A DNA stretch of 64,000 nt from an uncultured Enterorhabdus sp. (GTDB taxonomy: Bacteria > Actinomycetota > Coriobacteriia > Coriobacteriales > Eggerthellaceae), in assembly GCA_947649205.1 (NCBI GenBank), contig CANSQM010000009.1, positions 4,757 to 68,756 on the forward strand. The letters are read 5' to 3'. The translations under genes were made by a program, and so were the position numbers. This document shows, one piece after another, positions 16,170 to 38,399 of this stretch. The notes beneath the pieces are model-generated. The model saw nothing but the letters and a program-made list of their open reading frames with translations, made no database searches and was not told the DNA's origin. Numbering within the stretch: position 1 is the stretch's first letter; each line of letters starts with the position of its first letter.

Positions 16170-17546
16170 CTAAAGCAGCGGTGGCACCTCGGTGGTGCCA
16201 AGATCGCAGTAGAAGGCGTTCGTCTCCATGGCAATGGCATCACCCGCGCCGCCTCCGGCCGGCGTGCCCTTGATCCTCATCACCACGCCCTGAATGGCGC
16301 CCTCGCCATCGAAATAGTAGCTGACAATGAGAGATCCAATGCTCTCCATGCCGTCGAAGAGCCCCGACGGCACCTTCGTCGGATCGGTATTCAGAACGTA
16401 TTCGATGGCTCCGTCATCATACTCGTACACATCGATACCCCCAGCGCAATCCAACAGCGCCAGCGCCTTCTCGATACCGGCGGGGTCATCCGGAACGCCC
16501 GTCTGCGATTCACCGACCACTTCGTCGCCTTGAATCACCTGCGACTGATCGCCATCGAAAATCGTAAGCGTCGCATTGTCTTCGTCCCCGTTAAGTTCCA
16601 GGTACATGGCAGCTTTGAAGCCGTCGGTGCGGTCAACCAGCGCCTCGGCGTATACCGTGGTGATTTCCTCCTGGCCGCCAACCGTCGTGGTGACCGTCGT
16701 CTCAGTTCCCACGGTCATATTGGCGGGAAGGCTCTCCAACCTCTCGCGTAGCTCGGCGGAGGCCTGCGCAGCATCACGCGTCACCAGCGCCCCCTCGTCC
16801 TCGGGCATCGGGGGTACCGTCACATTGCCCCAGTTGTGATAAGTCGTCTCGATGGCCGTGCGCGCTGGCACCGACTGGCCGCCGACCTCCGCAGCGCCCT
16901 TGGCCGTCACCGTCTCGCCCACCAGAGTTCCCATGGCGTTGAACCGACAGCTCACCTCAACTTCCGTCGGCTTCTCCACCAATCCAATAGCCTCGGGAAA
17001 TTCTCCTCCGAACCTCAGGTGGAATACCGTATCCTCTCCATCCTCTTCGACAGAGACCAAGGTGTCATAACGCCAATAGATTTCCTGCCAGCCGCCAACC
17101 AGTTGCCACCCCTCGCCACCAGTAGCTGGATTGATCGATGATACGTCAACAGCCCCTCCCTCGCTCACCTGCACGGTTTTCTCGCCCTCGGCGTACAGCT
17201 CGACGCCGTCTTTCTCTTCCCAGTCGCCTTCGTACTTGATGTACACAAGGGCGGCGCCGTCCGTGTTGTCGGCCACGGTCTCGCTGTTCAAGACGCCTTC
17301 TTGAACGGTGTCGCCCTCGCCAATGACATACCGTTCCGTTGTGTTGCAAGCATAGGAATCGGGAAGGGCGTTTAACAGCCCTTGCAGCCGCTCGGTCTCT
17401 TCCATGCCAACCCCGTCGGCATCACTCGGCTCACTGAAGCTCTCATCGCGCGTCGCATCCGCGCACGCACACAACCCCAGCGCCAGACACAGCGCCGCAC
17501 CCGCGGCCACCGCCTTCCGTGCCGCACGCGCCATACCAGCCGCCAT
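16170..17546 (-). CDS. Putative lipoprotein with two tandem LppX/LolA-like domains
   Basis: Signal ending LGLCAC; two ~190-aa repeats ending YHNWGNVTVPPMP and YCDLGTTEVPPLL; ATG 17546 after a GGAAAGGGG RBS. Confidence 0.7.
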   Translation of the reverse strand: MAAGMARAARKAVAAGAALCLALGLCACADATRDESFSEPSDADGVGMEETERLQGLLNALPDSYACNTTERYVIGEGDTVQEGVLNSETVADNTDGAALVYIKYEGDWEEKDGVELYAEGEKTVQVSEGGAVDVSSINPATGGEGWQLVGGWQEIYWRYDTLVSVEEDGEDTVFHLRFGGEFPEAIGLVEKPTEVEVSCRFNAMGTLVGETVTAKGAAEVGGQSVPARTAIETTYHNWGNVTVPPMPEDEGALVTRDAAQASAELRERLESLPANMTVGTETTVTTTVGGQEEITTVYAEALVDRTDGFKAAMYLELNGDEDNATLTIFDGDQSQVIQGDEVVGESQTGVPDDPAGIEKALALLDCAGGIDVYEYDDGAIEYVLNTDPTKVPSGLFDGMESIGSLIVSYYFDGEGAIQGVVMRIKGTPAGGGAGDAIAMETNAFYCDLGTTEVPPLL

Positions 17547-17643
17547 GGCATTCCCCTTTCCCCTCAAGCTCTCCGCATGGCAGACCGTCCCACCAAGAAG
17601 CGGCCTCCACCCCCATAGTATGCGCCCAAAGCCCGATAAAAAC

Positions 17644-17662
17644 CATCAACGTTCCGTTGATG
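17644..17662. promoter_or_regulatory. Perfect palindrome CATCAACG-ttc-CGTTGATG, candidate operator
   Basis: About 100 bp upstream of the lipoprotein start; same core as the boxes at 33400-33440 and 35790-35830. Confidence 0.7.
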
Positions 17663-23257: not shown

Positions 23258-26200
23258 TTAATAATCGAAAGTACCCGCTACAAGCTCTCCGCGTATCTTG
23301 GCGAGCTCTTCAAGAACTTCTTTCTTCGAACCCGATGCCTTTAATATGCGCGTATTGACCTCCTTATAATACTCATTGGTATGCAGACCTGGGTGATAGG
23401 CACTGTCTGGAACGATCTCTTTTTTCGTCGGAAGATAGACCCCATTCGCTGGATCGTTAATATCGATACCCCATTTTTCAAGGACCCGTCGCGCTTCATC
23501 AGCCTTTGCTGCACCTCCCGCGATAATATGATGCGCTGCATAATCCGAACTAGGGCGAGTTACGCCCGCTTCCTTCATATTGTGCGCAAGCACTTTCGAG
23601 CTAGCCGGCCTCCCAAGCTTCAATGCTGCTGCGGATTCCTTAGATGCATCCGACGCGGCTTTTGCGATACTCTTTGCGACCTTTCCGCCCTTGAGAAGGT
23701 CACCCCCATAGGGGATGATCGCAGCAATGGCAGAAATCGCCATGTTCGTATAATCTTTTTCCCGCCAATAGGCTATCGCGTTGACGCCGTCAGACAGAGG
23801 TGTAGGGTCGAACGTCCCGATAATGTCGAGGGTAGTGTGGGTATCGGAGTTGTGATTCTTCTGCTTCGGCGCGTTGTAGTAGGGCAGCGTGGAGCACATG
23901 AGGCGCTTAATGCGGGCAGCCTCGCGCTCGGCGTAGATCTGCGCCGAACTCTTCCTCTTTTTCGATGGGGAGAATATCTTCTTGGTCGTCCTGCCGACCG
24001 ATCGGGCTGCCTGAGAGACGCTCCACGCCTTCTCAATGACACTCGATCCACTCGTGCGTATTATCGTGTTTGACTGGAACGGGGCTTTCGGTTTGCCTCC
24101 GGATGCGAGTCGCCTGTCCATGCTCCTGTTGGTAGTAAGAAGCCCAGAGGTCTTCGTTTTCAGGGCCTTCGAGGTGTAACTCCGCTGCATCCAGGTTCCC
24201 TTGCCGCCCGAGAGCACCCGGTTACGACTGTAGGAGTTCTTGCGGACCTGCTTAGCGGTCTTGCCTCTCGTCGAACGCGACTCGTGACCCGTGGGGTCGG
24301 CCGAGGCCACGGGGTTGCCCTCGGCGTAGGCGTAGCGGTTCAGGGTGGCGGGGTCGGCAGCGTCCCCCAGGTAGGTGTCCCGGCTCCCGAAGGTGCCGGC
24401 ACCCGGGTCGTACCAGCGGGCGCGCAGGTACTGCAGGCCGGCGGCGCCCGTGGCCTCCTCGCCGTTGTAGCCGTAGTGGGGCAGCTCGGACTGGTAGCCG
24501 ATGCCGCCCAGGGCCGGACCCCCGAACTCGCCGGTATCGGCGGCTGCCTCGCCCCAGGGGGCGTAGGCGTAGCTGGCCGCGATGCGGCCGTCGCCGGCCA
24601 TTACGGCGCTCACGCTGCCAAAGCCATCCTCCAAGTACGTATCGGCCACGGGCACGGCCTCAGTGCCGCCCACAGTGGATAGGCGCCCCAAGCCGTAAGT
24701 GTCGTTCAGGGCGCCCGATACACTGGATTCGCGGGCCAGAGGCTGGGCCACATCGTCGATGACCGTGGAGTTCACATAGGCCACCAGCTCCCAGCGCTCC
24801 TGCACATAGGGCGTGTAGGTGGGTATGGTGCCGTAGCGTACTTGCACGCTGTCGCCCAACGGCTTCAAGACAGCAGGCTCTTGAGCCGCTGGCACCAAAT
24901 CATTGCCGCGCAGCGGCAATGCCCGAGGGGCAGCAAGGGGCACACCTGCCGATGAGAGGATGGTCTGGCGCTCTTCGGACGAGAGCGTGGCCGCTGCCAG
25001 CAGGGCCGCATCAGTCCCCGGCAGCGGTATCCCGAACGGCTGGGCGCCATGGGTGGCCAAAGGATCCAGCAAGCCGTCCAACAACGCAACCAGAGCCGTT
25101 GCAGCCGGGCACGCCGGCACGAGGGCCGATGCGGCACCTACCGCTGCGCCATAGACCGCCCAGCGCAGAGCCGGATCGGAACCCGGGGCCTCCCGCTTGG
25201 CGGACGCGGCCCTCCACGAGGCCACGGGAGCCTCGATGGGGCGGCGCTCCCAGGTGCCAGTGGTGGCGAGGCGGCCGAACTCTGCCGCTGTCCACCGGGG
25301 TGCCACGCGGGTAGGAGCGCCCCACCAGGCAGGGTCTTCGGGCTCAGGCAGGGGCTGTCCCGGTGTAACTTCCTTGGGCTCCAGCTCCGTGAAGGGCATC
25401 GTGCCCACGGCCAGCTCGTCGGTATGGTACAAGGTGGCCTGGAACACACGGTTGCCATCGCCATCGTACGTGGCAGCCATGAGCACGCGGCCGCCCTGGC
25501 GCACAGCGGCCAGCCGGTTCTCGGCGGTATAGGCGTACTCCACAGGGTCTTCGCCGGCGGCATCCTTGCGCACCAAGTTGCCGGCCTTATCGTACTCGTA
25601 GGTCGTGCGCCCCTCCGGCCCCACCGATTCCACGAGACGGTCATCGTCGTCGTAGATGAGCTTCGTAAGCGCGGTAGAGCCCGAGACCACGTCGGTGCGC
25701 TCGATAGCCGTGCGGTTGCCGGCGGCATCCCACTGGTATTCCTCCCGGATGTGGGTCTCCCCCGAGCCGTCATCGGTCTTCTCCTCGAAGGCAATCAGGC
25801 GGTCGTCGTCATCATAGGCATAAATGCGCGCGCTTTGAATGACGACCCCATCGGGGTTCGTGAGGACCGCCTCCTCGGCAATGGGATTGCCCTCGCCGTC
25901 CCACTTATAGGCGAACGACGAGACGGAGTCGCCATCGGCCCCGGCGTTTTCCAGCTTTGCCAGCTGGCCTTCACCGTCGTACTCGTAGGTGGTGACCGAC
26001 CCATCGGGCCGCATCAAGCGCACGGGGCGGTTCTCTTCATCGTACTCGTAGGTGTAGTCACCCTCGGCCGTTCGCACCTGGATGAGATTGCCTACCGCGT
26101 CGTAGGCATAGGCCACCACCGAGCCATCGGGATAGGTAACCGAATCCAGCTCACCCAAGCTGTTGTAGGTGTACTGGATGCGGCGTCCCTGGCCGTCCGC

Positions 26201-29200
26201 CTCGGCAATGACGCGGCCCACTTCGTCGTACTCGTAAGCCGCCTCTCCCATCGCATCGGCACGAGCGGTCACCAGGCCGTTGGCATCGTAAGCGTACAGC
26301 ACCGACTGGGCATCCCCCTGGGAATAGCCCTTTTCCACCAGATTGCCCAGCTCGTCCCAGTCGTAGGTGGTGGCGTTGCCAGCGGCATCCACCACGGCCG
26401 TCACACGGCCGGCCGGATCGCGCACGAATTCTTCCAGAGCGCCAGAGGGAGACTCCACCGAGGTAAGACCGCCCTCGGCATCGTAGCCGTAGCGGGTGAT
26501 GCGGCCCATGGCATCGGTTACCTGGGCCAAGTTCCCGTCCAGGTCGTACTCGTAGGAGGTCACGGCACCCTCGGGGCTCGTCACTTTCGTCAGCTGCCCG
26601 GCATCGTCCCACTCGTAGGCCGCGCTATGGCCGTTGCGATCGGTGGCCCGAACCACACGATTGGCGTCGTCGTAGTCCCACGATGACACCCGGCCAAGGG
26701 AATCGGTGACTGCCGACAGGTTGCCGACCTTATCCCACCTATAGGTTGTGACCGCGCCCATGGGAGAAGTCTGCCGCGCGAGGCGGCCGTCGCCATCCCA
26801 TTCGTAGGCAGTTATGTTGCCACGAGCATCGGCCTGGCTGGTCAGATTGCCCGCCGCGTCGTAGGAGAACACCAGGCCCTCGATATCGGTGCCTCCCTGG
26901 GCAACGAGGTTGCCGCGAGCGTCCCAGGCCCACCGCGCCGATTCCCCTTCACCGTTGCGCTGGGATACGAGGCGGTCCAGCCCATCGTAGGCATACTCGG
27001 TACGCACGCCGGCAGCATCGGTTTCGGCGGCCAAGTTGCCGGCATCATCCCATTCCCACGAACGCTTATGACCCGCCGCGTCCTCTTGACCCGTCAGACG
27101 CCCCAGAAGATCGTAGCTGTAGGTGACGCGAGCGCCCAGGTTGTCGCGATCGACAGCAGCGTTGCCTGCTTCATCGTACTCCAGTTCGCGCACGTAACCC
27201 CGCGGCGTGGTTATGCGGGTCAGGCGGTCGAGCTCATCCCAGCCGTATTCCCAGCGACCGCCGCCCGGGGCGGTGCGCGAGAGCACGTTGCCGCGGGCAT
27301 CGTACTCATAGGCCGTCGTGCGCCCCAGCGGATCGGTCTCAGCCGTCAGATTGCCGACCGCATCGTGACGGTACGAGGTTGCCGCGCCCGCGGTGTCGGT
27401 ATGAGTTGTCAGGTTGCCGAGAGCGTCCCAGGCCCATTGCTCCTCGCGGCCCAGAGCGTCGGTGTGCGACATGAGGCGCCCCTCGCCGTCATAAGCCCAC
27501 TGGTCGCGAGAGCCCTCGGGGCTCGTTGCGGCCGTCAGGTTGCCGTTAGCGTCCCAGACAAAAACCGCGCTGTTCCCCAAAGGATCGGTGGAGCGAACCA
27601 GGTTTCCCAAGGCATCGTAACCATAGGTCGTGGCGTTGCCCTCCTCGTCCACGGCCTCGGTAGTATTACCGACAGCGTCGTAGGCCCATCGCCGCACCGC
27701 GCCCATGGCATCGGTGGCCGCAGTGATATTGCCGGCGGCATCGTACTCGTAGCTCGTGACCGCCCCATCCGCCTCTCGCGTCTCGGAAAGCAGATTGTTG
27801 CGAGCATCCCAGCCATAGGAGATAGCGTGCCCCAGCCCATCGATCTCGCGGGAAAGATTGCCGGCAGCGTCGTACTCGTAGGTCGTTACGGAACCATCGA
27901 AGTCGCTCGCCCGCACTTCGCGGCCCCAGGCATCGTACTCCAGCGACGCGGTGCGGCCCAGAGAATCAGTCGCACTCGTCAGGTTGCCGGCACCGTCGTA
28001 CTCGTAAACCTCCGCACTGCCGGCGCTATCGGAGACAGCTGTCAGGTTGTCTCGCACGTCCCATTCATAGGTGGCCTCCACGCCGGCAGCATCCACTGTG
28101 CGCACGAGCCGACCCAATTTGTCATACTCGCTGGTCTCGCGGGCCCCATCGGGCCGGACACGGGCAGTCACGCGTCCCGCTGTATCGTGCTCGTAGGCTG
28201 TGACGTTTCCCAGGGTGTCGGTGGCGCTCACAAGATTGCCCACCGCATCGTAGGCGGCCGTGCGCCGGTGGCCCAAGGCGTCAGTCACTGCCACGACATT
28301 GCCCGCCTCGTCGTATTCGCAGCGCACCGTGTTGCCCGCTGCGTCCGTGACCGCCGTCACGGCTCCGAAGGCATCGTACTCGTAGCTCGTTTCATGGCCG
28401 AGGGCATCGCACTCGCGCACCACGTTGCCAGCGCCGTCGTAGGCGAAGCGCGTAACCGCTCCCAGAGCATCAGTCTCACTGAGAGTGCGACCCTCGCCAT
28501 CATGGGTCCAGGAGGCAATGGCACCCTGACCGTCGGAAAGGCTCGTCAGGTTTCCCGCCCCATCCCACGTAAACGAGAAAGCGCGACCGGCGGGATCGGT
28601 GGCGCCTTCCATGGCGCCGGAGCCATCGTAGGCGAACGACCAGGTGCGCCCCGCTTCGTCGATAGAACTCACGCGCCCGGCAGCCGTGTATGCGTAGGAT
28701 GTCGTTGTCCCACGCCCGTCAGCGACCGATGCGCGGCGCCCACCCGGCTCCCAGGTAATTCGCTCGCTCACACCCAGGGCATCTTCGGTTTCCGTCAGAT
28801 GACCAGCAGCATCATAGCGATAGGTTGTGACATTCCCCAGCGGATCCGTATAGCTGGTCGGCACACCGTAGGTGTCGTCGTAGGCGGCCTCCTCTACAAC
28901 GCCATCGGGGCTTTCCACGCGAATGACGTTATCCCGCTCGTCATAGGCATAACGGGTCGTGTGCCCCAGAGCGTCCGTTTCGGACACCATGCGGTCGCGA
29001 GCGTCATAAGCGTAGGTGGCAACCGCTCCGCCGGGTTCGACCTGACGTACCAAGTTTCCCGCCTTGTCGTAGCCGTAGCGGGTGACACCGCCAGCTGGGT
29101 CGGTCATGGTGGCTATTCGGTAGGCGCCGTCGTAGGTGAAGGAAGTGGTGTAACCACGCTCGTCGGTGATGGCCTTTACGAGCCCTAACCCGTCCAGTCG

Positions 29201-32200
29201 GTAGGAGCGGCTTCCCCCTGCACCATCCCGTTCGCCGACGAGATGACCGGCCGCATCGTAGGCCCACGTGCGTCCGTGCCCCGCCGGGTCGGTCTCGGAC
29301 ACCTTGCGCCCCATGGCATCGTAAGCGTATCGGGTGGTGCCCGCAGCCGTTTCCACGCGCATGAGCTTCGCACCGGTCCAGGCGTAGGTTTCGCGCACGC
29401 CATCGGCATCGGTCTTGGAGGTGCAGCGATTCGCAAAGTCGTAGGTGTAGGCGGTCGTGCCCGTGGCCGGCGAGGTTTCCGAGAGCAAGTTGCCCGCGCC
29501 GTCATAGGTATAGCGGGTGGTGGCACCGTCGGGGTCAGTGCGGCTCGTCACATGGTTCTTGCCGTCATAGGTGTAGCGGGTGACGTGCCCATCGGGACTA
29601 GTGGATTGCACCAAGTTGCCGGCGGCATCGTAAGCGTAGGTACCATTCTCGTCCGAGATGAGTGTGTTATTCGCCCCATAGACGCGCGCGACCTTCCGCC
29701 CGTCGGGATACTCGATGGACGTCGTGCGTCCTCGGTCGTCATAGCGATGCACCGTCGTGCGCCCGGCCGCATCGGTGGCTCGGGTGTAGCCAGACCCATA
29801 GGAAAGCGTGTTCACATTACCAGCCAAATCCACCTGGCGTGTCACGCGATTGGCCCCGTCGTAGGTGTTGGCTACCACGCGCCGGCCATTCTGGTCGTAC
29901 CAGGCGGTCATGCGCCCAGCGCCGTCGTACTCGTAGCGCACCGCCCGACCGCCGGCATCGGTGAAGCTCGTTAGATTCCCGCCGGCATCGTAGCCGTAGG
30001 CCAAGCGCGCACCGCCGGGAAGACTCACGGCGGTAATGAGCCCCTGAGCGTTGCAGGTCACAGCGTAGGAGGTGCCCGTGCGATCGGCGAGAGAGGCGAT
30101 ATGACCGTTGGCGTCGCGCCCGATCCGCGTGATGGAGCCGCCCGCGTCCTGTATCTCGGTGAGACGACCCCACTTATCGAAGCGGCGCACCGTTCCGTCG
30201 TCATCGACGATCTCCCAGCGGTAGCGCGTGGCCGAGCCTTCTTTGTAGGCGATCTTCTTCAGGGCCAACCCCGCTTCGCCGTGCCTCTTGAAGCCGCCCT
30301 TGCCGTCGGGGTCGAACCAGTATGTCTTGCCATCGCCCACTGAGTACACCGCCGCGCCGTTTTCCTGCAGGCCCAAGCTCTCATCCCAAGCGAAGCTCCA
30401 GTTGCGGCCGAAAGACGAGAGGTACCCGTCGCCCTGGGCGTTGTAGGTGCGCGTGAGGGCAAAGTCGCCGCCGAGGCCCGGCACCGAAGCGTCGGTGGCC
30501 TCCAGGATGAAATTGCCCGTATTCAGGTTGATGGGCTCGAAGCCGTATTCGCAATGCCTGCCGCGGCCCATGAGCGCCGAATCGATGCGCTTCTTCTGGC
30601 TGTCAGTCAGCTGCTTGGGGTTATAGGCCTTAGTGGTCTTCGGATTGCGCACGAATATAGTGTTGCCGCCCACGATGAGTGTGTCCTGCACACGATTGTC
30701 CTGGGCCAATGTGTTCAGGCTGACCCCGTAATGAGACGCAATGGAAGGGAGGGTATCTTTGGCCGTGGCCTTGTACACGAGGAAGCTGTCCGATTCCACC
30801 AGTTTGCCCGAGCTGCCGTTGGCCGCGGCCCGCGCCCGCACCTTGTAGCTGGTGTTGAACGCGAAGCCGCCGAACAACTTGCTCTGCCAGTTCGACAGCT
30901 TGTCGCGGTACTTGGTACCGCTGGGTACCTGCTTCTCCCACTCCGTGCTGTCGGGGTACTTGTAGCTGCGGCTGGCATAGGCCACCCCGGCGTCGTTTTT
31001 ACCCACCAGCTCGTAGGCCACCATGGAACGGGGCTGGGCCACGCCGTCCGCGAAGACGCCGTCTAGCTGTAGCTTGCCCGCGAAATCCGCCTCGGTCACC
31101 GTGCGCAGATTGATGGTCGTGGCGTTCAGAGACAGCGATTCGCTCACCGGGTCGGGCACCGCCCAGTCAATTTCCAAGGATGGAGGGTTGTCGGCGTTCT
31201 TGTTGTCCAAAAGCTCGCACTGCATGTTGCGCTCATCGGTGGCCTTGATGCACAGGCCGTTCTGGCCCCAGGTGCCCTGCACCCAGTTGTTGACGGGCTC
31301 GCGCACATCCCATGCCAGATAGCCCTTGGAGGTGCGGGCGTTTTGCGAGGTGACGAACTCGTGACCCATGGATTTCTGGCTATTCCAGGTAATAGAGTCG
31401 AAGTCCCAGGACGACTTGTTGCGGTAGAGGCCAAGCTCTGTCTTGCCGTTGGAGAAAGCCGTACGCTGATGCAGCCACAGCTTGGCCGAATCGATGCGAG
31501 CCTCGTCCATGATGTTGCCGAAGTCGTACTGGATGGCCAGGTACACCCGGCACATTCCAAGACCGTAGCCGCCGCGGAATTCCGCTGTACCCGTCTTGTC
31601 GCCGTCGTCGTAGCCGGCATATTGGAAGTCGTTCTCGCCGACGTAGGTATCGGGCGCCAGCTGCTCTACCGCCGTCACGCGCATGGCGCTCTTGGCAATG
31701 TCGATGGTAGGATCGATGCGCACCGGGTAGGCGCGTTCGGGAGCCGAAAGCCACTCCCAATTCGCCTCCACCCGCGCCACGGGCGTACCGTCCTCAGCAG
31801 TGCCGAGGGCCATGGAGACCGAATTGTCCACCGCCTCAGCAGCGTCTATGGCTATGGGTGCCGACAGCGTGATGATCTCGCGCGGGTCCTGGGCCGTGGC
31901 CGCCAGGGCCGGATCGGCGCTCTCTCCATCGCTCGGATCGGGCGCCGCTCCTTTCTCGCGTACGATGACGATGCCCCGTTCATGCACCACCTCCAGATCA
32001 TCGTCCACGATGATCTTCATGGCCGGCGCGAAGGCCTCCACGGGGCGCGTGAGGATGACGTCCTCCTTAACCACGCCGCCGAGGAGCGTGTATTGGTAGT
32101 CCACGCCAGGACGCACCTCGGTGTAGCGAATGGCATTACCCTCGGCGGCCGAATGGGTGAAGTCTCCCTCTTCAGGGACGAGCTCGATGCGATGGCCATC

Positions 32201-33328
32201 TTTCTCGATAACGATGCCGCGCCCCTCGCCCAAGGCTGCGGGCAAACGGAGATCGAACCCGTTGGCAGCAGGTTCGTACACGGTGGCGAAGTTGGGCTCG
32301 GGAAACACGGGGGCCGCTCCATCGCCTTCGCCGGAATCGCTTGCGCCCTCGGCAACAGCCGCAGCGCTCCCCCTTTCAGGCGAATCGGGCGCGAACAGGG
32401 AAAGGAACGCGGCCACGGGTCCTTCGTTCGCCGGTTCCTCAGCGACAACCAGGGTGTTATCAATGGGTCGGGCACTGCCATCTTCGTCGACATAGGCTGT
32501 GGCCACACCACCCAGCACTGTACGGAACCGCGTCTCCGAAAGCTGGTAGACCGCCACTCCATCTTCTGCCGATATCAGCTCCCCTTCGGGCTCTGGCTCG
32601 GCGTAGTAGTCCACCGGCGGCGCAGGTTCAATCACCTCGACAACGGGAACTTCCTCGGTGGCTTCTTCCGAATGCAGACCCTCCCCTTCGGATCCCGCAT
32701 CTGCCGATGCCGAGGGATCCTCCGGCTGTTCCTCCGAAGGCAACGGCAGAACATCGTCACTCCCCAGATCCGATTCTGCCGAAGAAGGGGCGTCTTCCTC
32801 GGTCGGACTGGGAGATGTTTCTTCATCGGGCTCGTCCGCGGGCCCGGGCAGGCCCGATTGCTCCCCATCTGCGCCGGGTGTCTGAATGTCGCTTTCCGCC
32901 TGCGGTGCTCCCGTATCACCTCGCAACTCGTCAGCATAGGCAGCCACGCCATCGCCCAGCAGCGAGAACGTAAGCAAGAATGCAAGGAGGCAACAGAGGG
33001 CTTGACGACCCGATCGGCGCATCCGGGGCACCACGGCATCCAAAACACTCGCGTTGATGCCACCCCGATCGCTTCGATTCCTCCGCGAACGTCCGTAGAG
33101 ATGTCGCACGAGCATGACCATGGCTACGGTGGAAGAGCCCAGGCCGATCGCGACGGAAGCCATGCGAACGAAAGCCCGGGCCGCTGACAAGCCGTGAGCG
33201 GGCACAACCCATTCCCAGGCAGCCCAGCCAACCAGTCCTGACAGCAATGCCGCCAAAACTGCGGCGCCGAGCATAGCGCTCAAGCACTTTGCAATAACGT
33301 AGCCAAACCCCCGAGACATGGTTCTCAT
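23258..33328 (-). CDS. Giant WapA-like Rhs/YD-repeat polymorphic toxin: TM/signal region, DNRLRE, LysM, DUF6531, YD repeats, Rhs core, PT-TG-like segment, AHH nuclease (start 33319-33361)
   Basis: Unbroken ORF; EPINLNTGNF...LTRTYN; dozens of YD/YE repeats; GYNGEE..GLQYLRARWYDP..G.F; NPVASADPTG; AAHHII...NGVYLP...HPGLH. Confidence 0.95.
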   Translation of the reverse strand: MRTMSRGFGYVIAKCLSAMLGAAVLAALLSGLVGWAAWEWVVPAHGLSAARAFVRMASVAIGLGSSTVAMVMLVRHLYGRSRRNRSDRGGINASVLDAVVPRMRRSGRQALCCLLAFLLTFSLLGDGVAAYADELRGDTGAPQAESDIQTPGADGEQSGLPGPADEPDEETSPSPTEEDAPSSAESDLGSDDVLPLPSEEQPEDPSASADAGSEGEGLHSEEATEEVPVVEVIEPAPPVDYYAEPEPEGELISAEDGVAVYQLSETRFRTVLGGVATAYVDEDGSARPIDNTLVVAEEPANEGPVAAFLSLFAPDSPERGSAAAVAEGASDSGEGDGAAPVFPEPNFATVYEPAANGFDLRLPAALGEGRGIVIEKDGHRIELVPEEGDFTHSAAEGNAIRYTEVRPGVDYQYTLLGGVVKEDVILTRPVEAFAPAMKIIVDDDLEVVHERGIVIVREKGAAPDPSDGESADPALAATAQDPREIITLSAPIAIDAAEAVDNSVSMALGTAEDGTPVARVEANWEWLSAPERAYPVRIDPTIDIAKSAMRVTAVEQLAPDTYVGENDFQYAGYDDGDKTGTAEFRGGYGLGMCRVYLAIQYDFGNIMDEARIDSAKLWLHQRTAFSNGKTELGLYRNKSSWDFDSITWNSQKSMGHEFVTSQNARTSKGYLAWDVREPVNNWVQGTWGQNGLCIKATDERNMQCELLDNKNADNPPSLEIDWAVPDPVSESLSLNATTINLRTVTEADFAGKLQLDGVFADGVAQPRSMVAYELVGKNDAGVAYASRSYKYPDSTEWEKQVPSGTKYRDKLSNWQSKLFGGFAFNTSYKVRARAAANGSSGKLVESDSFLVYKATAKDTLPSIASHYGVSLNTLAQDNRVQDTLIVGGNTIFVRNPKTTKAYNPKQLTDSQKKRIDSALMGRGRHCEYGFEPINLNTGNFILEATDASVPGLGGDFALTRTYNAQGDGYLSSFGRNWSFAWDESLGLQENGAAVYSVGDGKTYWFDPDGKGGFKRHGEAGLALKKIAYKEGSATRYRWEIVDDDGTVRRFDKWGRLTEIQDAGGSITRIGRDANGHIASLADRTGTSYAVTCNAQGLITAVSLPGGARLAYGYDAGGNLTSFTDAGGRAVRYEYDGAGRMTAWYDQNGRRVVANTYDGANRVTRQVDLAGNVNTLSYGSGYTRATDAAGRTTVHRYDDRGRTTSIEYPDGRKVARVYGANNTLISDENGTYAYDAAGNLVQSTSPDGHVTRYTYDGKNHVTSRTDPDGATTRYTYDGAGNLLSETSPATGTTAYTYDFANRCTSKTDADGVRETYAWTGAKLMRVETAAGTTRYAYDAMGRKVSETDPAGHGRTWAYDAAGHLVGERDGAGGSRSYRLDGLGLVKAITDERGYTTSFTYDGAYRIATMTDPAGGVTRYGYDKAGNLVRQVEPGGAVATYAYDARDRMVSETDALGHTTRYAYDERDNVIRVESPDGVVEEAAYDDTYGVPTSYTDPLGNVTTYRYDAAGHLTETEDALGVSERITWEPGGRRASVADGRGTTTSYAYTAAGRVSSIDEAGRTWSFAYDGSGAMEGATDPAGRAFSFTWDGAGNLTSLSDGQGAIASWTHDGEGRTLSETDALGAVTRFAYDGAGNVVRECDALGHETSYEYDAFGAVTAVTDAAGNTVRCEYDEAGNVVAVTDALGHRRTAAYDAVGNLVSATDTLGNVTAYEHDTAGRVTARVRPDGARETSEYDKLGRLVRTVDAAGVEATYEWDVRDNLTAVSDSAGSAEVYEYDGAGNLTSATDSLGRTASLEYDAWGREVRASDFDGSVTTYEYDAAGNLSREIDGLGHAISYGWDARNNLLSETREADGAVTSYEYDAAGNITAATDAMGAVRRWAYDAVGNTTEAVDEEGNATTYGYDALGNLVRSTDPLGNSAVFVWDANGNLTAATSPEGSRDQWAYDGEGRLMSHTDALGREEQWAWDALGNLTTHTDTAGAATSYRHDAVGNLTAETDPLGRTTAYEYDARGNVLSRTAPGGGRWEYGWDELDRLTRITTPRGYVRELEYDEAGNAAVDRDNLGARVTYSYDLLGRLTGQEDAAGHKRSWEWDDAGNLAAETDAAGVRTEYAYDGLDRLVSQRNGEGESARWAWDARGNLVAQGGTDIEGLVFSYDAAGNLTSQADARGNITAYEWDGDGRLARQTSPMGAVTTYRWDKVGNLSAVTDSLGRVSSWDYDDANRVVRATDRNGHSAAYEWDDAGQLTKVTSPEGAVTSYEYDLDGNLAQVTDAMGRITRYGYDAEGGLTSVESPSGALEEFVRDPAGRVTAVVDAAGNATTYDWDELGNLVEKGYSQGDAQSVLYAYDANGLVTARADAMGEAAYEYDEVGRVIAEADGQGRRIQYTYNSLGELDSVTYPDGSVVAYAYDAVGNLIQVRTAEGDYTYEYDEENRPVRLMRPDGSVTTYEYDGEGQLAKLENAGADGDSVSSFAYKWDGEGNPIAEEAVLTNPDGVVIQSARIYAYDDDDRLIAFEEKTDDGSGETHIREEYQWDAAGNRTAIERTDVVSGSTALTKLIYDDDDRLVESVGPEGRTTYEYDKAGNLVRKDAAGEDPVEYAYTAENRLAAVRQGGRVLMAATYDGDGNRVFQATLYHTDELAVGTMPFTELEPKEVTPGQPLPEPEDPAWWGAPTRVAPRWTAAEFGRLATTGTWERRPIEAPVASWRAASAKREAPGSDPALRWAVYGAAVGAASALVPACPAATALVALLDGLLDPLATHGAQPFGIPLPGTDAALLAAATLSSEERQTILSSAGVPLAAPRALPLRGNDLVPAAQEPAVLKPLGDSVQVRYGTIPTYTPYVQERWELVAYVNSTVIDDVAQPLARESSVSGALNDTYGLGRLSTVGGTEAVPVADTYLEDGFGSVSAVMAGDGRIAASYAYAPWGEAAADTGEFGGPALGGIGYQSELPHYGYNGEEATGAAGLQYLRARWYDPGAGTFGSRDTYLGDAADPATLNRYAYAEGNPVASADPTGHESRSTRGKTAKQVRKNSYSRNRVLSGGKGTWMQRSYTSKALKTKTSGLLTTNRSMDRRLASGGKPKAPFQSNTIIRTSGSSVIEKAWSVSQAARSVGRTTKKIFSPSKKRKSSAQIYAEREAARIKRLMCSTLPYYNAPKQKNHNSDTHTTLDIIGTFDPTPLSDGVNAIAYWREKDYTNMAISAIAAIIPYGGDLLKGGKVAKSIAKAASDASKESAAALKLGRPASSKVLAHNMKEAGVTRPSSDYAAHHIIAGGAAKADEARRVLEKWGIDINDPANGVYLPTKKEIVPDSAYHPGLHTNEYYKEVNTRILKASGSKKEVLEELAKIRGELVAGTFDY

Positions 33329-33399
33329 CCCCTTCTGAAGCCAAGGGCCCATGAAAACCATTATGGAATCTATCAGCTAAAATATCATTCGTTTAACGC

Positions 33400-33440
33400 C
33401 AACTTATCGTTGATAAAGAAAACGATTCGTTGAGAATCAC
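33400..33440. promoter_or_regulatory. 41-bp tandem-operator box upstream of rhs
   Basis: caacttatcgttgataaagaaaacgattcgttgagaatcac; 35/41 identical to 35790-35830. Confidence 0.8.
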
Positions 33441-33456
33441 GCTCGTCTCCAGCGCG

Positions 33457-33699
33457 CTAGTCTTCAGTGTAGAAGTCTTCCTGCTCGTCCGCCTCATCGT
33501 AGACGTAATCGAGAATATCCCCTGGCTTGCAATCGAGCGCCCGGCACAGTGCATTCAGAGTAGAGAAGCGAATGGCCTTGATGCGCCCCGTTTTGATGCG
33601 CGAAAGATTGTTCTCCGAAAGGCCAATGAGCTCGGCTATTTCCTTCGACTGAACCTTCCGCTTCGCAAGCATTACGTCTAAGTTTACGATGATTGCCAT
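33457..33699 (-). CDS. Cro/C1-type (YozG-like) XRE HTH regulator
   Basis: IIVNLDVMLAKRK, LSENNLSRIKTGRIKAIRFSTLNALCRALDCKPGDIL. Confidence 0.92.
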   Translation of the reverse strand: MAIIVNLDVMLAKRKVQSKEIAELIGLSENNLSRIKTGRIKAIRFSTLNALCRALDCKPGDILDYVYDEADEQEDFYTED

Positions 33700-33711
33700 G
33701 GCTCCGCTCCC

Positions 33712-34254
33712 CTACAGGGCCTCGTCGGCCAATTCTTGCAGAGTTTTCCCATAGCTGAGAATGTAAGCAAACAGGAAGAATGCCCCAGCAGCAATAAGTG
33801 TCTCGAAGTTGAGGTTGAGCCCTCCGGGTTGATCGCTGGTAAAAATCCCAAAGTCAACACCGCCAAAAGAAAAGCTAAGCGCCGAGACCAAAGGATCCCA
33901 GAAAAGGCAAAACAGGGTAAAGCCAACCATAAGCCACCCCGTGACCAGCATGCGCCTGATTTGTTTTTCAGAAAACGGAGTGGCGCCTTTCGCCACATCA
34001 TGAGCAACGAGAGCGCAGAGGGTAAAGGCGAGGCCCATCACGACATCCTGCGTAAGAGCATACATCGCCCCAATCCAGACAGCAGCCCCATTCCCTGAGC
34101 CTGATTGCTGAACCAAAGCGACAAGAAGGAATAGGGCAAGAACGACAAAGAACGCTGCGGCTACAGCAAAAGCTACGCTAAGGAAGCGGCCCATACGATG
34201 AGCCCTCTGAAGCGATGATTCGATCTTGCCCAATTCTCTGTTGATTTTCAACAA
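33712..34254 (-). CDS. DUF2975 membrane protein
   Basis: About 4 TM helices, GATPFSEKQIRRM, YGKTLQELADEAL ending; usual partner of a YozG-like XRE. Confidence 0.85.
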   Translation of the reverse strand: MLKINRELGKIESSLQRAHRMGRFLSVAFAVAAAFFVVLALFLLVALVQQSGSGNGAAVWIGAMYALTQDVVMGLAFTLCALVAHDVAKGATPFSEKQIRRMLVTGWLMVGFTLFCLFWDPLVSALSFSFGGVDFGIFTSDQPGGLNLNFETLIAAGAFFLFAYILSYGKTLQELADEAL

Positions 34255-34287
34255 AGTTCCTTTTCTCAGTCTGCTATGCCCAACAAA

Positions 34288-34482
34288 CTATAGGACGAGA
34301 GGCTTGGGTTGAGGAAAGTAGCCTTTCTTTTCACAAAACTTGCGCACCTGGGAAGACTCGCTTTTTGTCTCCGCGCTTTGCTTCGCATAGCCGACGTTTA
34401 CGCACACGCCTCCAAACCCAATATGCTGGCAACGCGAGTGGGAAGGGACATCGAAATCATCGAGATCAGAATGAAACAGCAT
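34288..34482 (-). CDS. 64-aa candidate RiPP precursor peptide
   Basis: AAAGGAGG RBS before ATG 34482 inside the rSAM 3' end; MLFHSDLDDFDVPSHSRCQHIGFGGVCVNVGYAKQSAETKSESSQVRKFCEKKGYFPQPKPLVL. Confidence 0.72.
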   Translation of the reverse strand: MLFHSDLDDFDVPSHSRCQHIGFGGVCVNVGYAKQSAETKSESSQVRKFCEKKGYFPQPKPLVL

Positions 34483-35701
34483 GGTTTGCCTCCTTTGGCA
34501 GTTGTCGTTTGATACTTTCCAACGTTTCCCTAAAAAACACCTGGTACAAGGTGCAATATGGGTCAGTTTCCCCGCCACTTCCTATGGCGCGGGCCCGGCA
34601 ACCGGTGCCACAAAGGTAGCGCAGGTCGCACGAGGCACACGGACTCGAAGCGCTCACCTCGTGCACTCGGCGGCCAATCAGCTCGCATTCCTTCGCCGTC
34701 GGTCCCTGCCCATCAAACACATTACCCATGCCATAGCGCTCGTCGTGCATCATGTGGCAGGGGTACACCTCGCCATCGGCGGCCACACTGAGCGTGTCCA
34801 TGCCGGCACCGCAATTCTCGCGGCACTCCAACCCGCTCGCGAGTGTCTGAATGGCCGCCCCATCGCCTCCAGAGCACTGGATCATTATGGAAGCCAAGCG
34901 TCGCAAGTCATCGTCAGTGGGCATGAGGCCCTCGTCGCCCCATCCGCAAGACGTAGAAGAAAGGAGGCTGAAGTTCAGTTCGCAATGCAGCCGAGCAGCC
35001 AAATCATAGTAGAGCGGCACATCATCTATATTGAGGCGGTGCATCGTGGGGGTAATGCAGACATTGATATCCGTCGCCTGCGCCTCGGTCACGAATTCCA
35101 CCAGTCGATCGAAACGTTGCTCTCCGCGAATGAACGCTGGATGGTCGGCAGTCGCCCCGTCGAAGGAAACGGAGATCGTATCGATATAGGGAGCGCAAGC
35201 AGAAAGAAGACTCCGATCAAGCACTGTTCCGTTTGTTAGCACGTTGATGGATGAAATCCCATGATCGATAGCCGCCAACTCAAGGATAGCAGGGAGGTCG
35301 GAGCGCAAGAAGGGTTCACCGCCCGATATATTCAACTCCGCAATGCCCCGCGACGAAAGATACCGCAATGCGTTGCCAATCTGCGTTACCGTAGGGTCAT
35401 CAGCACCATTGCGATCACCAATCCAGGAATAGCATCCCTCGCATCGCAAATTGCACCGGTGGGTAATATGCAGATAGGCACTCTTCAATACAGGCAAGGC
35501 CAGCCGGTCCAATCGGCCTGCCTCCATCTGCGCCGCCAAATCAGGAGCCAATCTCCCTACCTCAGCGATGGACACTTCGCCGGCCACGAATGCCTGCGCC
35601 AGCGGCACTTCATCGGGCGAGAGGCCAATCACGAAGCCTGTCTGAGGGTTTCCAAGCATCGCAATACCGTCGACGGCGAAAAGCCGAGCCCGTTCGTTCA
35701 C
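34466..35701 (-). CDS. Radical SAM/SPASM protein with N-terminal RRE-like region, probable peptide maturase
   Basis: CNLRCEGC, SGGEP, LTNG, VSFDG; SPASM CGAG..ADGEVYPC..CASCDLRYLCGTGCRA..DPYC; GTG 35701 after an AAAGGGG RBS. Confidence 0.9.
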   Translation of the reverse strand: MNERARLFAVDGIAMLGNPQTGFVIGLSPDEVPLAQAFVAGEVSIAEVGRLAPDLAAQMEAGRLDRLALPVLKSAYLHITHRCNLRCEGCYSWIGDRNGADDPTVTQIGNALRYLSSRGIAELNISGGEPFLRSDLPAILELAAIDHGISSINVLTNGTVLDRSLLSACAPYIDTISVSFDGATADHPAFIRGEQRFDRLVEFVTEAQATDINVCITPTMHRLNIDDVPLYYDLAARLHCELNFSLLSSTSCGWGDEGLMPTDDDLRRLASIMIQCSGGDGAAIQTLASGLECRENCGAGMDTLSVAADGEVYPCHMMHDERYGMGNVFDGQGPTAKECELIGRRVHEVSASSPCASCDLRYLCGTGCRARAIGSGGETDPYCTLYQVFFRETLESIKRQLPKEANHAVSF

Positions 35702-35789
35702 TGCATTTCGCCCCTTTCGATACGCATTGTTCCTCTCAAGCCGAATCATAGTTTCCGCTCTTTCGTCGTTGTTTTCCAGTCCCGATTAT

Positions 35790-35830
35790 CAACTTTTCGT
35801 TGTTAATTGAAACGATTCGTTGATAATCAC
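35790..35830. promoter_or_regulatory. 41-bp tandem-operator box between rSAM and lysR
   Basis: caacttttcgttgttaattgaaacgattcgttgataatcac; outer arms GATTATCAAC (35784-35793) and GTTGATAATC (35819-35828) are inverted repeats. Confidence 0.8.
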
Positions 35831-35934
35831 AAGGCTCATTTTCCAGAAAGTGCCCTATATGCGATTCACAACACCCCCAATCATCGAGTATCATTGATTA
35901 CCAACGAAGTTTTGTTGATTGCGGAGATGACGAT

Positions 35935-36864
35935 ATGCATATCGATCATTTAGCTTACCTTGTCGCGACGGTGGATTTGGGCAGCATGGCCGAAGCGGCC
36001 CACCACCTGCACGTGACCAGTCAGGCAATCTCCAAGGCCATCAAAGACATGGAGAAGTACTTTGGCCACGAGATCATTGCGCGCGACGGGCGCAGCATTA
36101 AGCCCACAGCGCTAGGCACCGAGCTTGCAGACCTCGCCCGTCCCGTTGTTGAAGGGTATAAAGACTTCGAGGCATTTGGGCTAAGCTACGTTAAGGACGG
36201 CGATTCTCCTCGCGCTATTCGACTGGGCATTCCCGTTACCGCCTTACGCGGCGCTCTGTTTGATGAAAGCCGGCTCGATCTTTTCCGATTTGAATTCCCG
36301 GAAATCTCACTGGAACTATTTCACAGTTCAGCGGACGGGTGTCTGAGGGCCTTAGAGCAGGGGCTCATTGATGCAGCGGTCAGCATTGGCCGCTGCAACC
36401 AGGATGACTTTTTCAACGTGCGTATCGGCTCGTTGCAACTTAAGGTTCTGGCTCGCACAGGCCACCCCGCCGCCGTGGGCGAAGCGGTCGATTTCAACGA
36501 TTTGGCACGATTCCCCATCGCGCTTCCCGAAGACCTGCGCTTTGTATTTCCCAAAATCGATCAGCAGTTTACCCAAACAGGCCAAAGTAATCGCTTCGAA
36601 GCCCTCACGCCAACCCTCGAAGCCCACAAAGCCTTTCTCGCCAAAGATGGCCTCATCTTGGCGGGCCAGAAGAGTCCGCTTCTGGAACTGGGTGATTTCC
36701 TGTGCGAAAAGCCACTTACCGTCGAAGAAGGCATCTTCGCCCTGCCCCTTTACCTCACCTACCCCCAGAATAAAAACCACCTTAGCCTTTCCCGCCTTCA
36801 ATCCACCCTTATCCGAGGACGGGGATCGCAAGAACCGTTACCCGCGAATCGTTCCCGCCCATAA
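35935..36864 (+). CDS. LysR-family transcriptional regulator
   Basis: GSMAEAAHHLHVTSQAISKAIKDMEKYFG..IIARDGRSIKPTALG; substrate-binding domain. Confidence 0.92.
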   Translation: MHIDHLAYLVATVDLGSMAEAAHHLHVTSQAISKAIKDMEKYFGHEIIARDGRSIKPTALGTELADLARPVVEGYKDFEAFGLSYVKDGDSPRAIRLGIPVTALRGALFDESRLDLFRFEFPEISLELFHSSADGCLRALEQGLIDAAVSIGRCNQDDFFNVRIGSLQLKVLARTGHPAAVGEAVDFNDLARFPIALPEDLRFVFPKIDQQFTQTGQSNRFEALTPTLEAHKAFLAKDGLILAGQKSPLLELGDFLCEKPLTVEEGIFALPLYLTYPQNKNHLSLSRLQSTLIRGRGSQEPLPANRSRP

Positions 36865-36880
36865 TCGAGAGAGGAGAACT

Positions 36881-36982
36881 ATGTCTACAGGAGAGAATGC
36901 ACGGAGCACTAGTTTTTGGCAATTCGATCAGCGCCTTGCCCGGCGCCTCAACGAAGAGCCCGGAGGACATCCCATCGGCTAG
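36881..36982 (+). CDS. 33-aa small ORF
   Basis: GAGGAG RBS upstream of ATG 36881; MSTGENARSTSFWQFDQRLARRLNEEPGGHPIG. Confidence 0.4.
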   Translation: MSTGENARSTSFWQFDQRLARRLNEEPGGHPIG

Positions 36983-37078
36983 CACGAAGAACTACGAGCA
37001 CCAATATCCATCCTGGTCCAAAGACCAATCCCAATTGCCAACAGTCACACATTCGAGCAGCTGATTAAGAAAGGCGGT

Positions 37079-38107
37079 TTGACAATGGACGATACCTTTT
37101 CTCCATTTGGAGCTCCCGAGTGGAAGGAGGAGGCCACCGAGGAGCAAATCCGACGTTTTCGGTCCAAACTACTTGCATGGTGTGCAGAACGCCCTGCCTT
37201 GCTTGCCCTCGTTGCGAGCGCCGCAGGCTTCGTGCTCATCTTCCTCTCCTATTGCACTCAATTCGGCCGAGCCTTCTATTTCGCCATTCCAATCACTGAA
37301 ATTCCCCCTGCGGAAACTTTGGAAACCATTTTGATCATGATCGCTGCCGCCGTTATCCTGCTTGCAACAAATTCAGTTTCATATCGCGAGGTAAAATACC
37401 AGAAGTGCACCCACATCCTAAAACAACTCGTCAAATGGTGGGGCTTTTTATTCATCCTGGTAGTTATTATTTTTGTACTATATGTGCTAATTACCGCGAT
37501 AATTAACGCGCCAATTAACACATTAATTGCCCCGCAGAACGCTGAAAATGGCCAGAGCGACTCCTGGATTGAACCATTGCCAGGACTTCTTGGCGCACTC
37601 GTCCTTCTTGCTCTCCTTATATGGATACTGGTTTTTGGAATGGGAGCTATCTTCGGCCTCTCTGAGCGCAGAAGCCCCCTATCGGTCCGCTGCTACGAAA
37701 AAGACTCGCCGCAAAAAACTGCTCCAAGCAATAACGCGGGAATCATACGGAACAAAATTGGCCGCCAGGCACTTCGATATGGCCTAGCTCTAGCTATTCT
37801 GTCGTGTGGTTTTGTCGCCATAGGTTTTATCGCTCCGCAGTATCCTGGCGCTCCCGCAACTATTGCTGTTGTCGACAACGAGACCGAAGAAAAGCAAACC
37901 TGGCTTGTCGTGTTCTCTGACAAAGATCGCGTTTGCGTGGAGGAATGCGATCTAAGCGATTCCTCACTCTTGAAAGTAGACACATCTCATTTTCTATGGA
38001 TGGACAAGTCAGACCTGGTTTTCTATCCCATCTCAACACCCCGCATAACCGTAGAACTTCCTTCGGACAACGAAGTCAATCCCGATTCAAGCGCAAATCA
38101 AAATTGA
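37079..38107 (+). CDS. Multi-pass membrane hypothetical protein, lower GC
   Basis: 342-aa ORF with about 5-6 hydrophobic helices and a soluble C-terminus; GAAAGG RBS. Confidence 0.75.
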   Translation: MTMDDTFSPFGAPEWKEEATEEQIRRFRSKLLAWCAERPALLALVASAAGFVLIFLSYCTQFGRAFYFAIPITEIPPAETLETILIMIAAAVILLATNSVSYREVKYQKCTHILKQLVKWWGFLFILVVIIFVLYVLITAIINAPINTLIAPQNAENGQSDSWIEPLPGLLGALVLLALLIWILVFGMGAIFGLSERRSPLSVRCYEKDSPQKTAPSNNAGIIRNKIGRQALRYGLALAILSCGFVAIGFIAPQYPGAPATIAVVDNETEEKQTWLVVFSDKDRVCVEECDLSDSSLLKVDTSHFLWMDKSDLVFYPISTPRITVELPSDNEVNPDSSANQN

Positions 38108-38190
38108 TGGCCGCATCGGAGAAATTCAGTCTGCAAAATCACCAAACGGCTAATGACAGACTGGGGTAGCCATTAGGCAGGGCTCCTGGG

Positions 38191-38399
38191 TACCAAACCG
38201 CCTGTTTTTGACGGGCGTTTCGGGTTTTCCGTCAAAAATGAGGGGTTTGGTATCGCGGGCGGTTTTTTGGCGATGCCGTGACCTGGTGCTTCTTTGGGCG
38301 AGGGTTCCAAACCCCTGCTTTTTGCCGGGAAAAACGGTACCAAACCCCTTATTTCTGCCGGAAAATCTTCTGAGGCTGGCAGAAATGAGGGGTTTGGTA
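38191..38399. repeat. Two 62-bp long-arm palindromes (38191-38252, 38338-38399) and a partial arm at 38307-38328
   Basis: Arms TACCAAACCCCT(C/T)ATTT...AAATGAGGGGTTTGGTA read directly. Confidence 0.85.

Follow-up and report, generated by a model that had tools for sequence, protein, structure and literature searches.

A duplicated tandem-dyad box ahead of a radical SAM operon and an Rhs toxin gene as a candidate LysR-type operator in an uncultured Enterorhabdus sp.

We describe a 41-nt box that occurs twice in a 64,000-nucleotide stretch of DNA from an uncultured Enterorhabdus sp. (contig CANSQM010000009.1, positions 4,757 to 68,756; hereafter the window), once ahead of an operon for a radical S-adenosylmethionine (rSAM) enzyme and once ahead of rhs, a gene for a giant Rhs toxin. 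Our preferred reading, held with moderate confidence, is that the boxes are a tandem operator of a LysR-type transcriptional regulator (LTTR) and that the divergently encoded LysR co-controls, and probably activates, both the rSAM-peptide-membrane protein-XRE operon and the Rhs toxin with its AHH nuclease domain. On this view a single operator is present in two copies, and each copy places two 13-bp CAAC-N5-GTTG dyads in tandem at a distance of two helical turns, an arrangement that would fit a LysR-type tetramer with a recognition site and an activation site. LysR (35935-36864, plus strand) would be the most likely binder of both copies, and from a position upstream of the -35 element it would co-regulate, probably by activation, the operon and the downstream rhs gene. 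A partial third site at LysR's own promoter may serve LTTR autoregulation. The sequence anatomy of the boxes, their uniqueness in the genome, their conservation and their co-occurrence with LysR are direct observations; which protein binds, where the promoters lie and whether regulation is positive or negative are inferred from these. To our knowledge, little is known about the regulation of giant Rhs/WapA-type toxins in Gram-positive gut Actinobacteria, and the finding is of value mainly for opening the control of a Gram-positive Rhs toxin to direct tests.

Anatomy and promoter context of the two boxes

The order on the minus strand is box 2, the rSAM/SPASM gene, genes for a 64-amino acid (aa) peptide, a 180-aa membrane protein and an 80-aa XRE regulator, box 1 and rhs. 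Box 1 (33400-33440) and box 2 (35790-35830), both on the minus strand, form a direct repeat of 41 nt with sharp edges and unrelated flanks, and the 35/41 identity (85%) on which the original prediction was built was reproduced by a repeat search of the window. Each box consists of two 13-bp dyads of the form [C/A]AAC-N5-GTTG, 20 bp apart from start to start, with the words CAACTT[A/T]TCGTTG and AAACGATTCGTTG. The two imperfect CAACG-N3-CGTTG palindromes 20 bp apart that had been described earlier are present in both boxes; under the CAAC-N5-GTTG pattern, the box dyads show 0 and 1 mismatch. Box 1, which was followed through the repeat search, genome scans and strain comparison, comprises a proximal dyad (CAACTTATCGTTG, 33400-33412), a 7-nt spacer, a distal dyad (AAACGATTCGTTG, 33420-33432) and an 8-nt flank. 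Box 2, which was followed through the repeat search, a genome scan and the comparison with Slackia-like contigs described below, comprises a proximal dyad (CAACTTTTCGTTG, 35790-35802), a spacer, a distal dyad (AAACGATTCGTTG, 35810-35822) and a flank. Four of the six differences between the boxes fall within the 7-nt inter-dyad spacer (hypergeometric p ~0.0045).

The genome scanned for further copies comprises 2,735,181 bp in 70 contigs, with a GC content of 65%. In a fuzzy scan of the whole genome, every other 41-mer differed from both boxes by more than 11 mismatches. For the 21-nt core AAACGATTCGTTGAKAATCAC, the window contains two matches against 0.01 expected, and all three genome occurrences of TTCGTTGNNAATCA are in this locus. 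When dyad pairs 19-22 bp apart were sought with a loose pattern, four matches were returned from the genome, namely the two boxes and two overlapping matches on C19, in the intergenic region that separates another LysR gene (309 aa) from a divergent gene for a flavoprotein with a twin-arginine translocation (Tat) signal. Four xGTTG elements spaced ~21 bp apart are found there (C19:19889-19990). Single exact CAAC-N5-GTTG dyads number 25 genome-wide against 28 expected by chance, so a single dyad cannot define a regulon, and the motif is specific only when paired or positioned. A scan for TCAACG-N3-CGTTGA, suggested in the original prediction, has its sole genome match at 17646 and recovers neither box. 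That match is a perfect 15-bp palindrome (TCAACGTTCCGTTGA, 17646-17660) located 79 bp upstream of a 465-aa open reading frame (ORF; 16170-17567), and it is GC-rich, lies in an unrelated context and has no second dyad. When metagenome contigs were searched for exact copies of the box core, three matches were returned, all in unrelated DNA without homologues of the locus proteins.

The distance from each box to its gene depends on the start codon chosen. Gene callers use in-frame ATGs 14-16 codons upstream of both true starts (33361 and 35749), and the rSAM ORF is open up to ATG 35749. Single-nucleotide indels in strain variants L135 and L137 put both of these ATGs out of frame, which places the starts at GTG 35701 for the rSAM gene (ribosome-binding site AAAGGGG) and at ATG 33319 for rhs (ribosome-binding site AAGGGG). 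Judged by the same indels, 33319-33361 and 35701-35749 are 5' leader and not coding. Box 1 accordingly lies 17 nt past the XRE stop codon and 80 nt ahead of the rhs start, and the distance from box 2 is 88 nt to the downstream rSAM start and 105 nt to the ATG of LysR; the box-to-start distance of 70-90 bp given earlier is correct with these revised starts only.

A predicted rhs promoter (33360-33388, minus strand), called by consensus match only, has the -35 element ATGATA (33388-33383), a 17-nt spacer and the -10 element CATAAT (33365-33360). The proximal dyad of box 1 ends 11 nt upstream of this -35 element and is 34 nt from the -10 hexamer. For the rSAM operon, sequence and an alignment of dyad-bearing loci point to TATGAT (35745-35750, minus strand) as the putative -10 element, 39 nt from the proximal dyad of box 2. 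If these hexamers are -10 elements, the dyad centres would fall at about -53/-73 for rhs and -58/-78 for the operon, upstream of -35 in both cases, and from there LysR would co-regulate, and probably activate, both targets. In many loci a CATAAT-like hexamer follows the dyads at 34-45 nt, a distance that places them where activators bind.

A third, partial site that was absent from the original prediction lies at 35895-35914 on the plus strand, where TGATTACCAACGAA is the reverse complement of the box end TTCGTTGNTAATCA. It is inverted relative to the boxes, also holds a 1-mismatch dyad (CAACGAAGTTTTG, 35902-35914) and lies 21 nt ahead of the LysR ATG. The predicted LysR promoter, TTCACA-18-TATCAT (35865-35894, plus strand), matches the consensus at 10/12 positions, and the third site overlaps the predicted start region of its transcript. 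Both box 2 and the third site are within the 185-bp LysR/rSAM intergenic region.

The boxes could instead be RNA hairpins (an attenuator or processing site), or plus-strand promoters for lysR and for an antisense RNA to xre, an explanation that we consider extremely improbable. Folding of box 2 is strong on both strands (z -3.7 and -4.2), but box 1 folds no better than shuffled sequences (z -1.4 and -0.2) and into a different structure; since the two folds are unlike, a shared RNA structure was rejected as unlikely. No Rfam match was found. Both boxes also resemble a sigma-70 pattern on the plus strand, with 9/12 positions matching (TTGATA/TTGTTA-16-GAGAAT/GATAAT; 33410-33437 and 35800-35827), although the -10-like flank is lost in strains L135/L137 and in the Slackia-like loci. 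At box 1 such a promoter would run antisense to xre. The match is not kept in other strains.

LysR and XRE as candidate binders

The LysR of the window (309 aa) has the Pfam domains HTH_1 and LysR_substrate and is the sole member of its subfamily in the genome. It falls below every NCBIfam cut-off, the best match being CidR (77 bits vs 415), and the subfamily shares the helix motif [TS]xQA[IV]SKA[IV]. The rSAM-(peptide)-membrane protein-XRE cassette to which it is joined is one of a large paralogous family in Eggerthellaceae. We compared 30 such cassettes from this family of bacteria, 12 with a divergent LysR, as judged by a profile of the LysR N-terminus, and 18 without. An exact dyad lies 40-75 bp ahead of the rSAM frame in 6/12 LysR-linked and 0/18 LysR-less cassettes (one-sided Fisher p = 0.0016); allowing one mismatch raises these counts to 8/12 and 1/18, compared with 1.2 and 1.7 in shuffles. 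In the rSAM tree, the cassettes with LysR do not form a single clade. Within the 300 bp upstream of LysR homologues, 10 of 30 regions hold an exact dyad, where shuffles predict ~0.15, and the two-dyad 20-bp form recurs in four of these regions (L068, the window's own locus; L070; L071; L084), with L013 as a fifth. Dyads are also found at LysR loci that are far from any XRE gene. Around three such loci with a dyad (L098-L100), the surrounding 8-15 kb contain no gene for XRE, the membrane protein or rSAM, and in the L128-L130 group of genus g54, which likewise has none of these genes nearby, [C/T]AACAATTAGTTG is located between a LysR gene and an ABC-transporter operon. The dyad adjoins a divergent LTTR gene and co-occurs with it across genomes.

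The recognition helix of XRE is nearly the same across all cassettes, and the genome encodes five XRE paralogues versus one LysR of this subfamily. No co-occurrence of the dyad with XRE and its paralogues was found: it is missing from the 18 LysR-less XRE cassettes and from the XRE paralogue on C6, which is 72% identical, differs in the helix at one residue and has no box. Modules with XRE only carry dyads at the chance rate. The original prediction had left the choice between the adjacent XRE and the divergent LysR undecided. The cassette counts, the LysR loci without XRE, the box-less C6 paralogue and the paired-dyad scan favor LysR, whose subfamily the dyad tracks, whereas it does not track XRE. 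The broader proposal of a shared regulator acting through a duplicated operator is well supported by the clustering of differences in the spacer, the conserved arms and the recurrence of the arrangement in another genus. The statement that the site is not a canonical T-N11-A box is right as to letters (C-N11-G) and misleading as to geometry, which is LTTR-like: a 13-bp dyad, present as two dyads two helical turns apart and upstream of the predicted -35 element.

Several observations weigh against LysR as the binder. Its correlation with the dyad is imperfect, in that cassette L012 has a full-length LysR and only a decayed dyad, and several LysR-linked cassettes lack a clear dyad. The LysR ORF of the closest GTDB orthologues is only ~95 aa long, and their dyad is single or degenerate. 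Dyad-bearing LysR homologues are only 26-40% identical overall to the window LysR. The dyads span 13 bp with an N11 interior, but the outer bases are C/A...G instead of the canonical T-N11-A. Single exact dyads, as noted, occur genome-wide at the chance rate. The remaining points count at the same time in favor of a different binder, in which the XRE/HTH_26 protein would use box 2 for autoregulation of the operon that encodes it and box 1 for control of rhs, a proposal that we judge unlikely. XRE is present wherever the dyad precedes rhs, so the two proteins are never cleanly separated there, and it is 91% conserved to its Slackia-like orthologue. The dyads of the operon box are kept between genera, including N5. 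TCAACGA[AT] is found in four of the five dyads of the locus, and TCAACGA occurs twice, 21 bp apart, upstream of the XRE-only module L046, so XRE may read the same DNA. The short distance between box 1 and the XRE stop codon fits this proposal as well, as does a Slackia-like contig (L140) where the dyads of rhs remain but no LysR is adjacent; this contig is near-identical to others that do carry LysR. Set against these points are the 18 dyad-less cassettes, each with an XRE whose recognition helix is near-identical; the C6 paralogue, with no other copy of the box in the genome; the rhs boxes of strains and Slackia-like loci, which lose CAACGA but retain the arms; the dyads at LysR loci without any XRE; and a position upstream of the predicted -35 element that is unusual for a small repressor made of a helix-turn-helix only. 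XRE may act in addition to LysR or, less likely, in its place.

Conservation in strains and related genera

The exact XRE protein is encoded on hundreds of metagenome contigs of the same species, from which five locus variants were compared. The CAAC/GTT arms and the rhs promoter stretch are invariant among the five, N5 of the distal dyad of box 1 (dyad 1b) changes from GA to TT, and the 5' flanks of both boxes vary. Outside the species, contigs that NCBI names Slackia isoflavoniconvertens carry LysR, a 35-aa peptide, the membrane protein, XRE and Rhs, without rSAM. Their XRE is 91%, their LysR 53% and their membrane protein, over its full length, 64% identical to that of the window, and the recognition helix of LysR is near-identical. 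The operon box of these Slackia-like loci, CAACGAATCGTTC-N7-CAACGAAAAGTTG with dyads 20 bp apart, is essentially box 2 with another spacer: the dyads are the same including N5 (CAACGAATCGTT and CAACGAAAAGTTG), and the spacer and flanks differ. Their rhs boxes, CAACAAAAAGTTC-N7-CAACCAATCTTTG or CAACTATAAGTTT-N7-CAACTAAACGTTG, again with dyads 20 bp apart, retain the CAAC/GTT arms and the phasing only, with N5 free, and lie 34 nt from CATAAT, as in the window. A double dyad ahead of both the operon and rhs in these loci indicates that the duplicated operator is conserved across genera. The original prediction had counted absence of the motif from orthologous loci among the observations that would speak against it; the double dyad is retained at both promoters.

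In another lineage (L147), the genes encode a short LysR, rSAM, the membrane protein, XRE and Rhs, and rhs is preceded by a dyad with one mismatch. Dyads paired at exactly 20 bp are found in both boxes of the window, in L013, L070, L071 and L084, and in the Slackia-like loci. The LysR ORFs of L009-L011, L147 and L148 measure 94-99 aa, reduced to the DNA-binding domain, and these loci hold, where readable, no pair but at most a dyad that is single, decayed or differently built. In the Slackia-like loci L139 and L141-L144, the homologue of the peptide (MLFYSDPEIEGQSHSRCQHIGISGFCINTG..., 35 aa, at ~4230-4337) occurs without an rSAM gene, and the peptide can therefore persist without its presumed maturase.

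These comparisons also bear on whether the boxes are a non-functional relic, left by duplication of 41 bp or as a scar of recombination where the low-GC island that contains the module ends, which we regard as very improbable. Box 1 lies exactly where the GC content drops from 62% to 52%, the boxes are direct repeats that bracket a four-gene operon, and the 8-nt flank they share is not kept in strains or in Slackia-like loci. A scar would leave unexplained why the differences between the boxes cluster in the spacer while the arms are invariant among strains, why another genus has a double dyad at both promoters although N5 and the spacer have turned over completely, and why the distance to the -10/-35 elements stays at precisely 34 nt. 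No downstream copy of the box is present in GTDB orthologous cassettes that lack rhs.

Four GTDB relatives of the same genus (G009, G007 contig C3, G002 and G335) carry a different, LysR-less cassette at the syntenic HtrA/rhs position. Its XRE is only 43% identical, and a long rhs leader and a terminator are present, without a dyad. The rSAM frame of this cassette (L104-L107) carries an in-frame stop; G002 could be aligned in two pieces only. The low GC content of the module, together with the different cassette in relatives, suggests cassette replacement. From the GTDB representatives, the link to rhs had seemed unique to this genome, an impression overturned by the contigs that encode close XRE homologues.

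Neighboring genes, AT-rich elements and known systems

The gene identities given originally (rhs, rSAM, XRE and LysR) were borne out by domain matches. The rSAM/SPASM enzyme (34466-35701, minus strand) matches Pfam Radical_SAM (7.5e-21) and SPASM (1e-4), and its stop codon is overlapped by a gene for a 64-aa Cys-containing peptide (34288-34482, minus strand) whose N-terminal half is conserved in orthologues. Both domains and the overlapping short peptide characterize it as a radical SAM/SPASM peptide maturase, and no specific family can be assigned because it scores under the cut-offs of all named NCBIfam maturases. The 180-aa membrane protein (33712-34254, minus strand; TTG start) has no Pfam family and is a constant partner of XRE. 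The XRE/HTH_26 regulator (33457-33699, minus strand), the rival candidate binder, has 80 aa with an acidic tail and is encoded by the last gene of the operon. Its family is unusually conserved, with 68-72% identity to proteins that NCBI lists under Roseivirga, Flavobacterium and Desulfolutivibrio. The rhs gene (23258-33319, minus strand) encodes 3,353 aa from the true start, with CBM96, LysM, DUF6531 and TEN_YD-shell domains, 40 RHS repeats and a C-terminal AHH nuclease (residues 3260-3349). It is followed by DUF1963 and DUF2247 genes and has the features of an Rhs polymorphic toxin. The whole module is contained in a low-GC island of ~5 kb (33300-38350; 48-58% GC, with surrounding DNA at 62-69%), with box 1 at the rhs-side edge. 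A plasmid or mobile-element origin was considered and dropped, as no plasmid match was found for 33300-38300.

Between LysR and box 2 lies a 21-bp palindrome, A1 (AATCAATGATACTCGATGATT, 35879-35899, minus strand), which overlaps the predicted LysR -10 element. With a matrix built from its orthologous sites it scores 26.1, against 13.4 for the best unrelated genome site after it. It is conserved in all close orthologues, it occurs in the Slackia-like loci, L147, L029 and others, and it is present in the XRE-only module L046. A1 may be an XRE site or a LysR autoregulatory site. At the rhs promoter and near the other XRE paralogues of the genome, the matrix found nothing above threshold. A related word, [GT]TAAACGA-N-TGAT, is located between the proximal dyad and the -10 element in the rhs promoters of both genera. 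Two other AT-rich elements were noted in the cassette family. Motif 'A' (TTTATCAT..AAACGATAAA; AATCAATGATAAACNTTGATT in close orthologues) lies upstream of rSAM cassettes with or without LysR; considered as a candidate XRE operator, it is mostly missing from XRE-only modules, and its matrix finds only one site in the genome. An AT-rich palindrome, TTTATC-N7-GATAAA, occurs ~130-200 bp ahead of many rSAM genes, with or without LysR (L014, L016, L019, L020, L022 and L023 among them), and may be the cassette family's own operator or promoter.

The AT-rich words allow for a composite site, in which LysR would read the CAAC/GTTG arms and activate the operon and rhs, while XRE, as a product of the operon, would read overlapping or adjacent AT-rich words, namely TAAACGA-N-TGAT over the rhs -35 element and A1 at the LysR promoter, and exert negative feedback. 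We find this division of labor doubtful. The standing of A1 as the only strong genome match to its matrix, its presence in all close orthologues and in XRE-only L046, and the occurrence of the TAAACGA-N-TGAT word in the rhs promoters of both genera are in keeping with it; the sub-threshold scores of A1 at the rhs promoter and near other XRE paralogues are not, and the AT-rich resemblances are short and may be due to chance. A more speculative extension, to which we assign a low probability, is that Rhs toxins of Eggerthellaceae are under a conserved control module made up of LysR, the peptide, the membrane protein and XRE. It would be an incoherent feed-forward circuit, gated by the peptide, that sets when the contact-dependent toxin is deployed. 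By way of the duplicated tandem-dyad operator, LysR would switch on the operon and the Rhs nuclease at the same time, and the membrane protein-XRE pair, possibly sensing the (rSAM-modified) peptide, would feed back on lysR and rhs through an A1-type element.

Under the preferred LysR reading, the type of mechanism is ordinary, an LTTR with a duplicated operator. What gives it weight is that a toxin promoter carries the same tandem-dyad operator as a neighboring peptide/radical SAM operon, and that the linkage of LysR with a divergent (rSAM)-peptide-membrane protein-XRE operon followed by Rhs is found in at least three lineages (this Adlercreutzia species, the Slackia isoflavoniconvertens-like contigs and L147). 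With three sites and one LysR in the genome, the candidate regulon is compact and testable. It also provides a working consensus, CAAC-N5-GTTG paired at 20 bp, for an uncharacterized LysR subfamily that is common in Eggerthellaceae. In the literature on LysR control of Rhs, on DUF2975/XRE pairs and on Eggerthella rSAM peptides, we found nothing on this system.

Known LTTR binding sites include the OxyR tetramer site with its four ATAG elements, sites 1-2 of BenM/CatM and the site of CbnR. The boxes share with such sites the interrupted dyads of 13-15 bp, paired about two helical turns apart as bound by a tetramer; the predicted location upstream of or abutting the target -35 element; the divergent and adjacent regulator gene; and the additional site at the regulator's own promoter. 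They differ in their CAAC/GTTG arms (C-N11-G, where T-N11-A is canonical) and in the second full copy of the putative operator, 2.4 kb away, for the separate gene rhs. Tandem short palindromes at about two-turn spacing, with a small helix-turn-helix protein encoded in the regulated operon, also recall operators of the Cro/CI (XRE) type. In contrast to those operators, the dyads here lie upstream of the predicted core promoters and do not co-occur with XRE in LysR-less cassettes or at its paralogues. With regard to the toxin, the Rhs-type gene wapA of Bacillus subtilis is regulated by the two-component regulators DegU and YvrHb. Both cases concern a Gram-positive, Sec-type Rhs/WapA-like toxin under a dedicated transcription factor and not under a secretion-system regulon. 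The regulator family is different here, and, unlike wapA, the toxin promoter of the window shares its operator with a peptide/rSAM operon, a linkage that is kept across genera.

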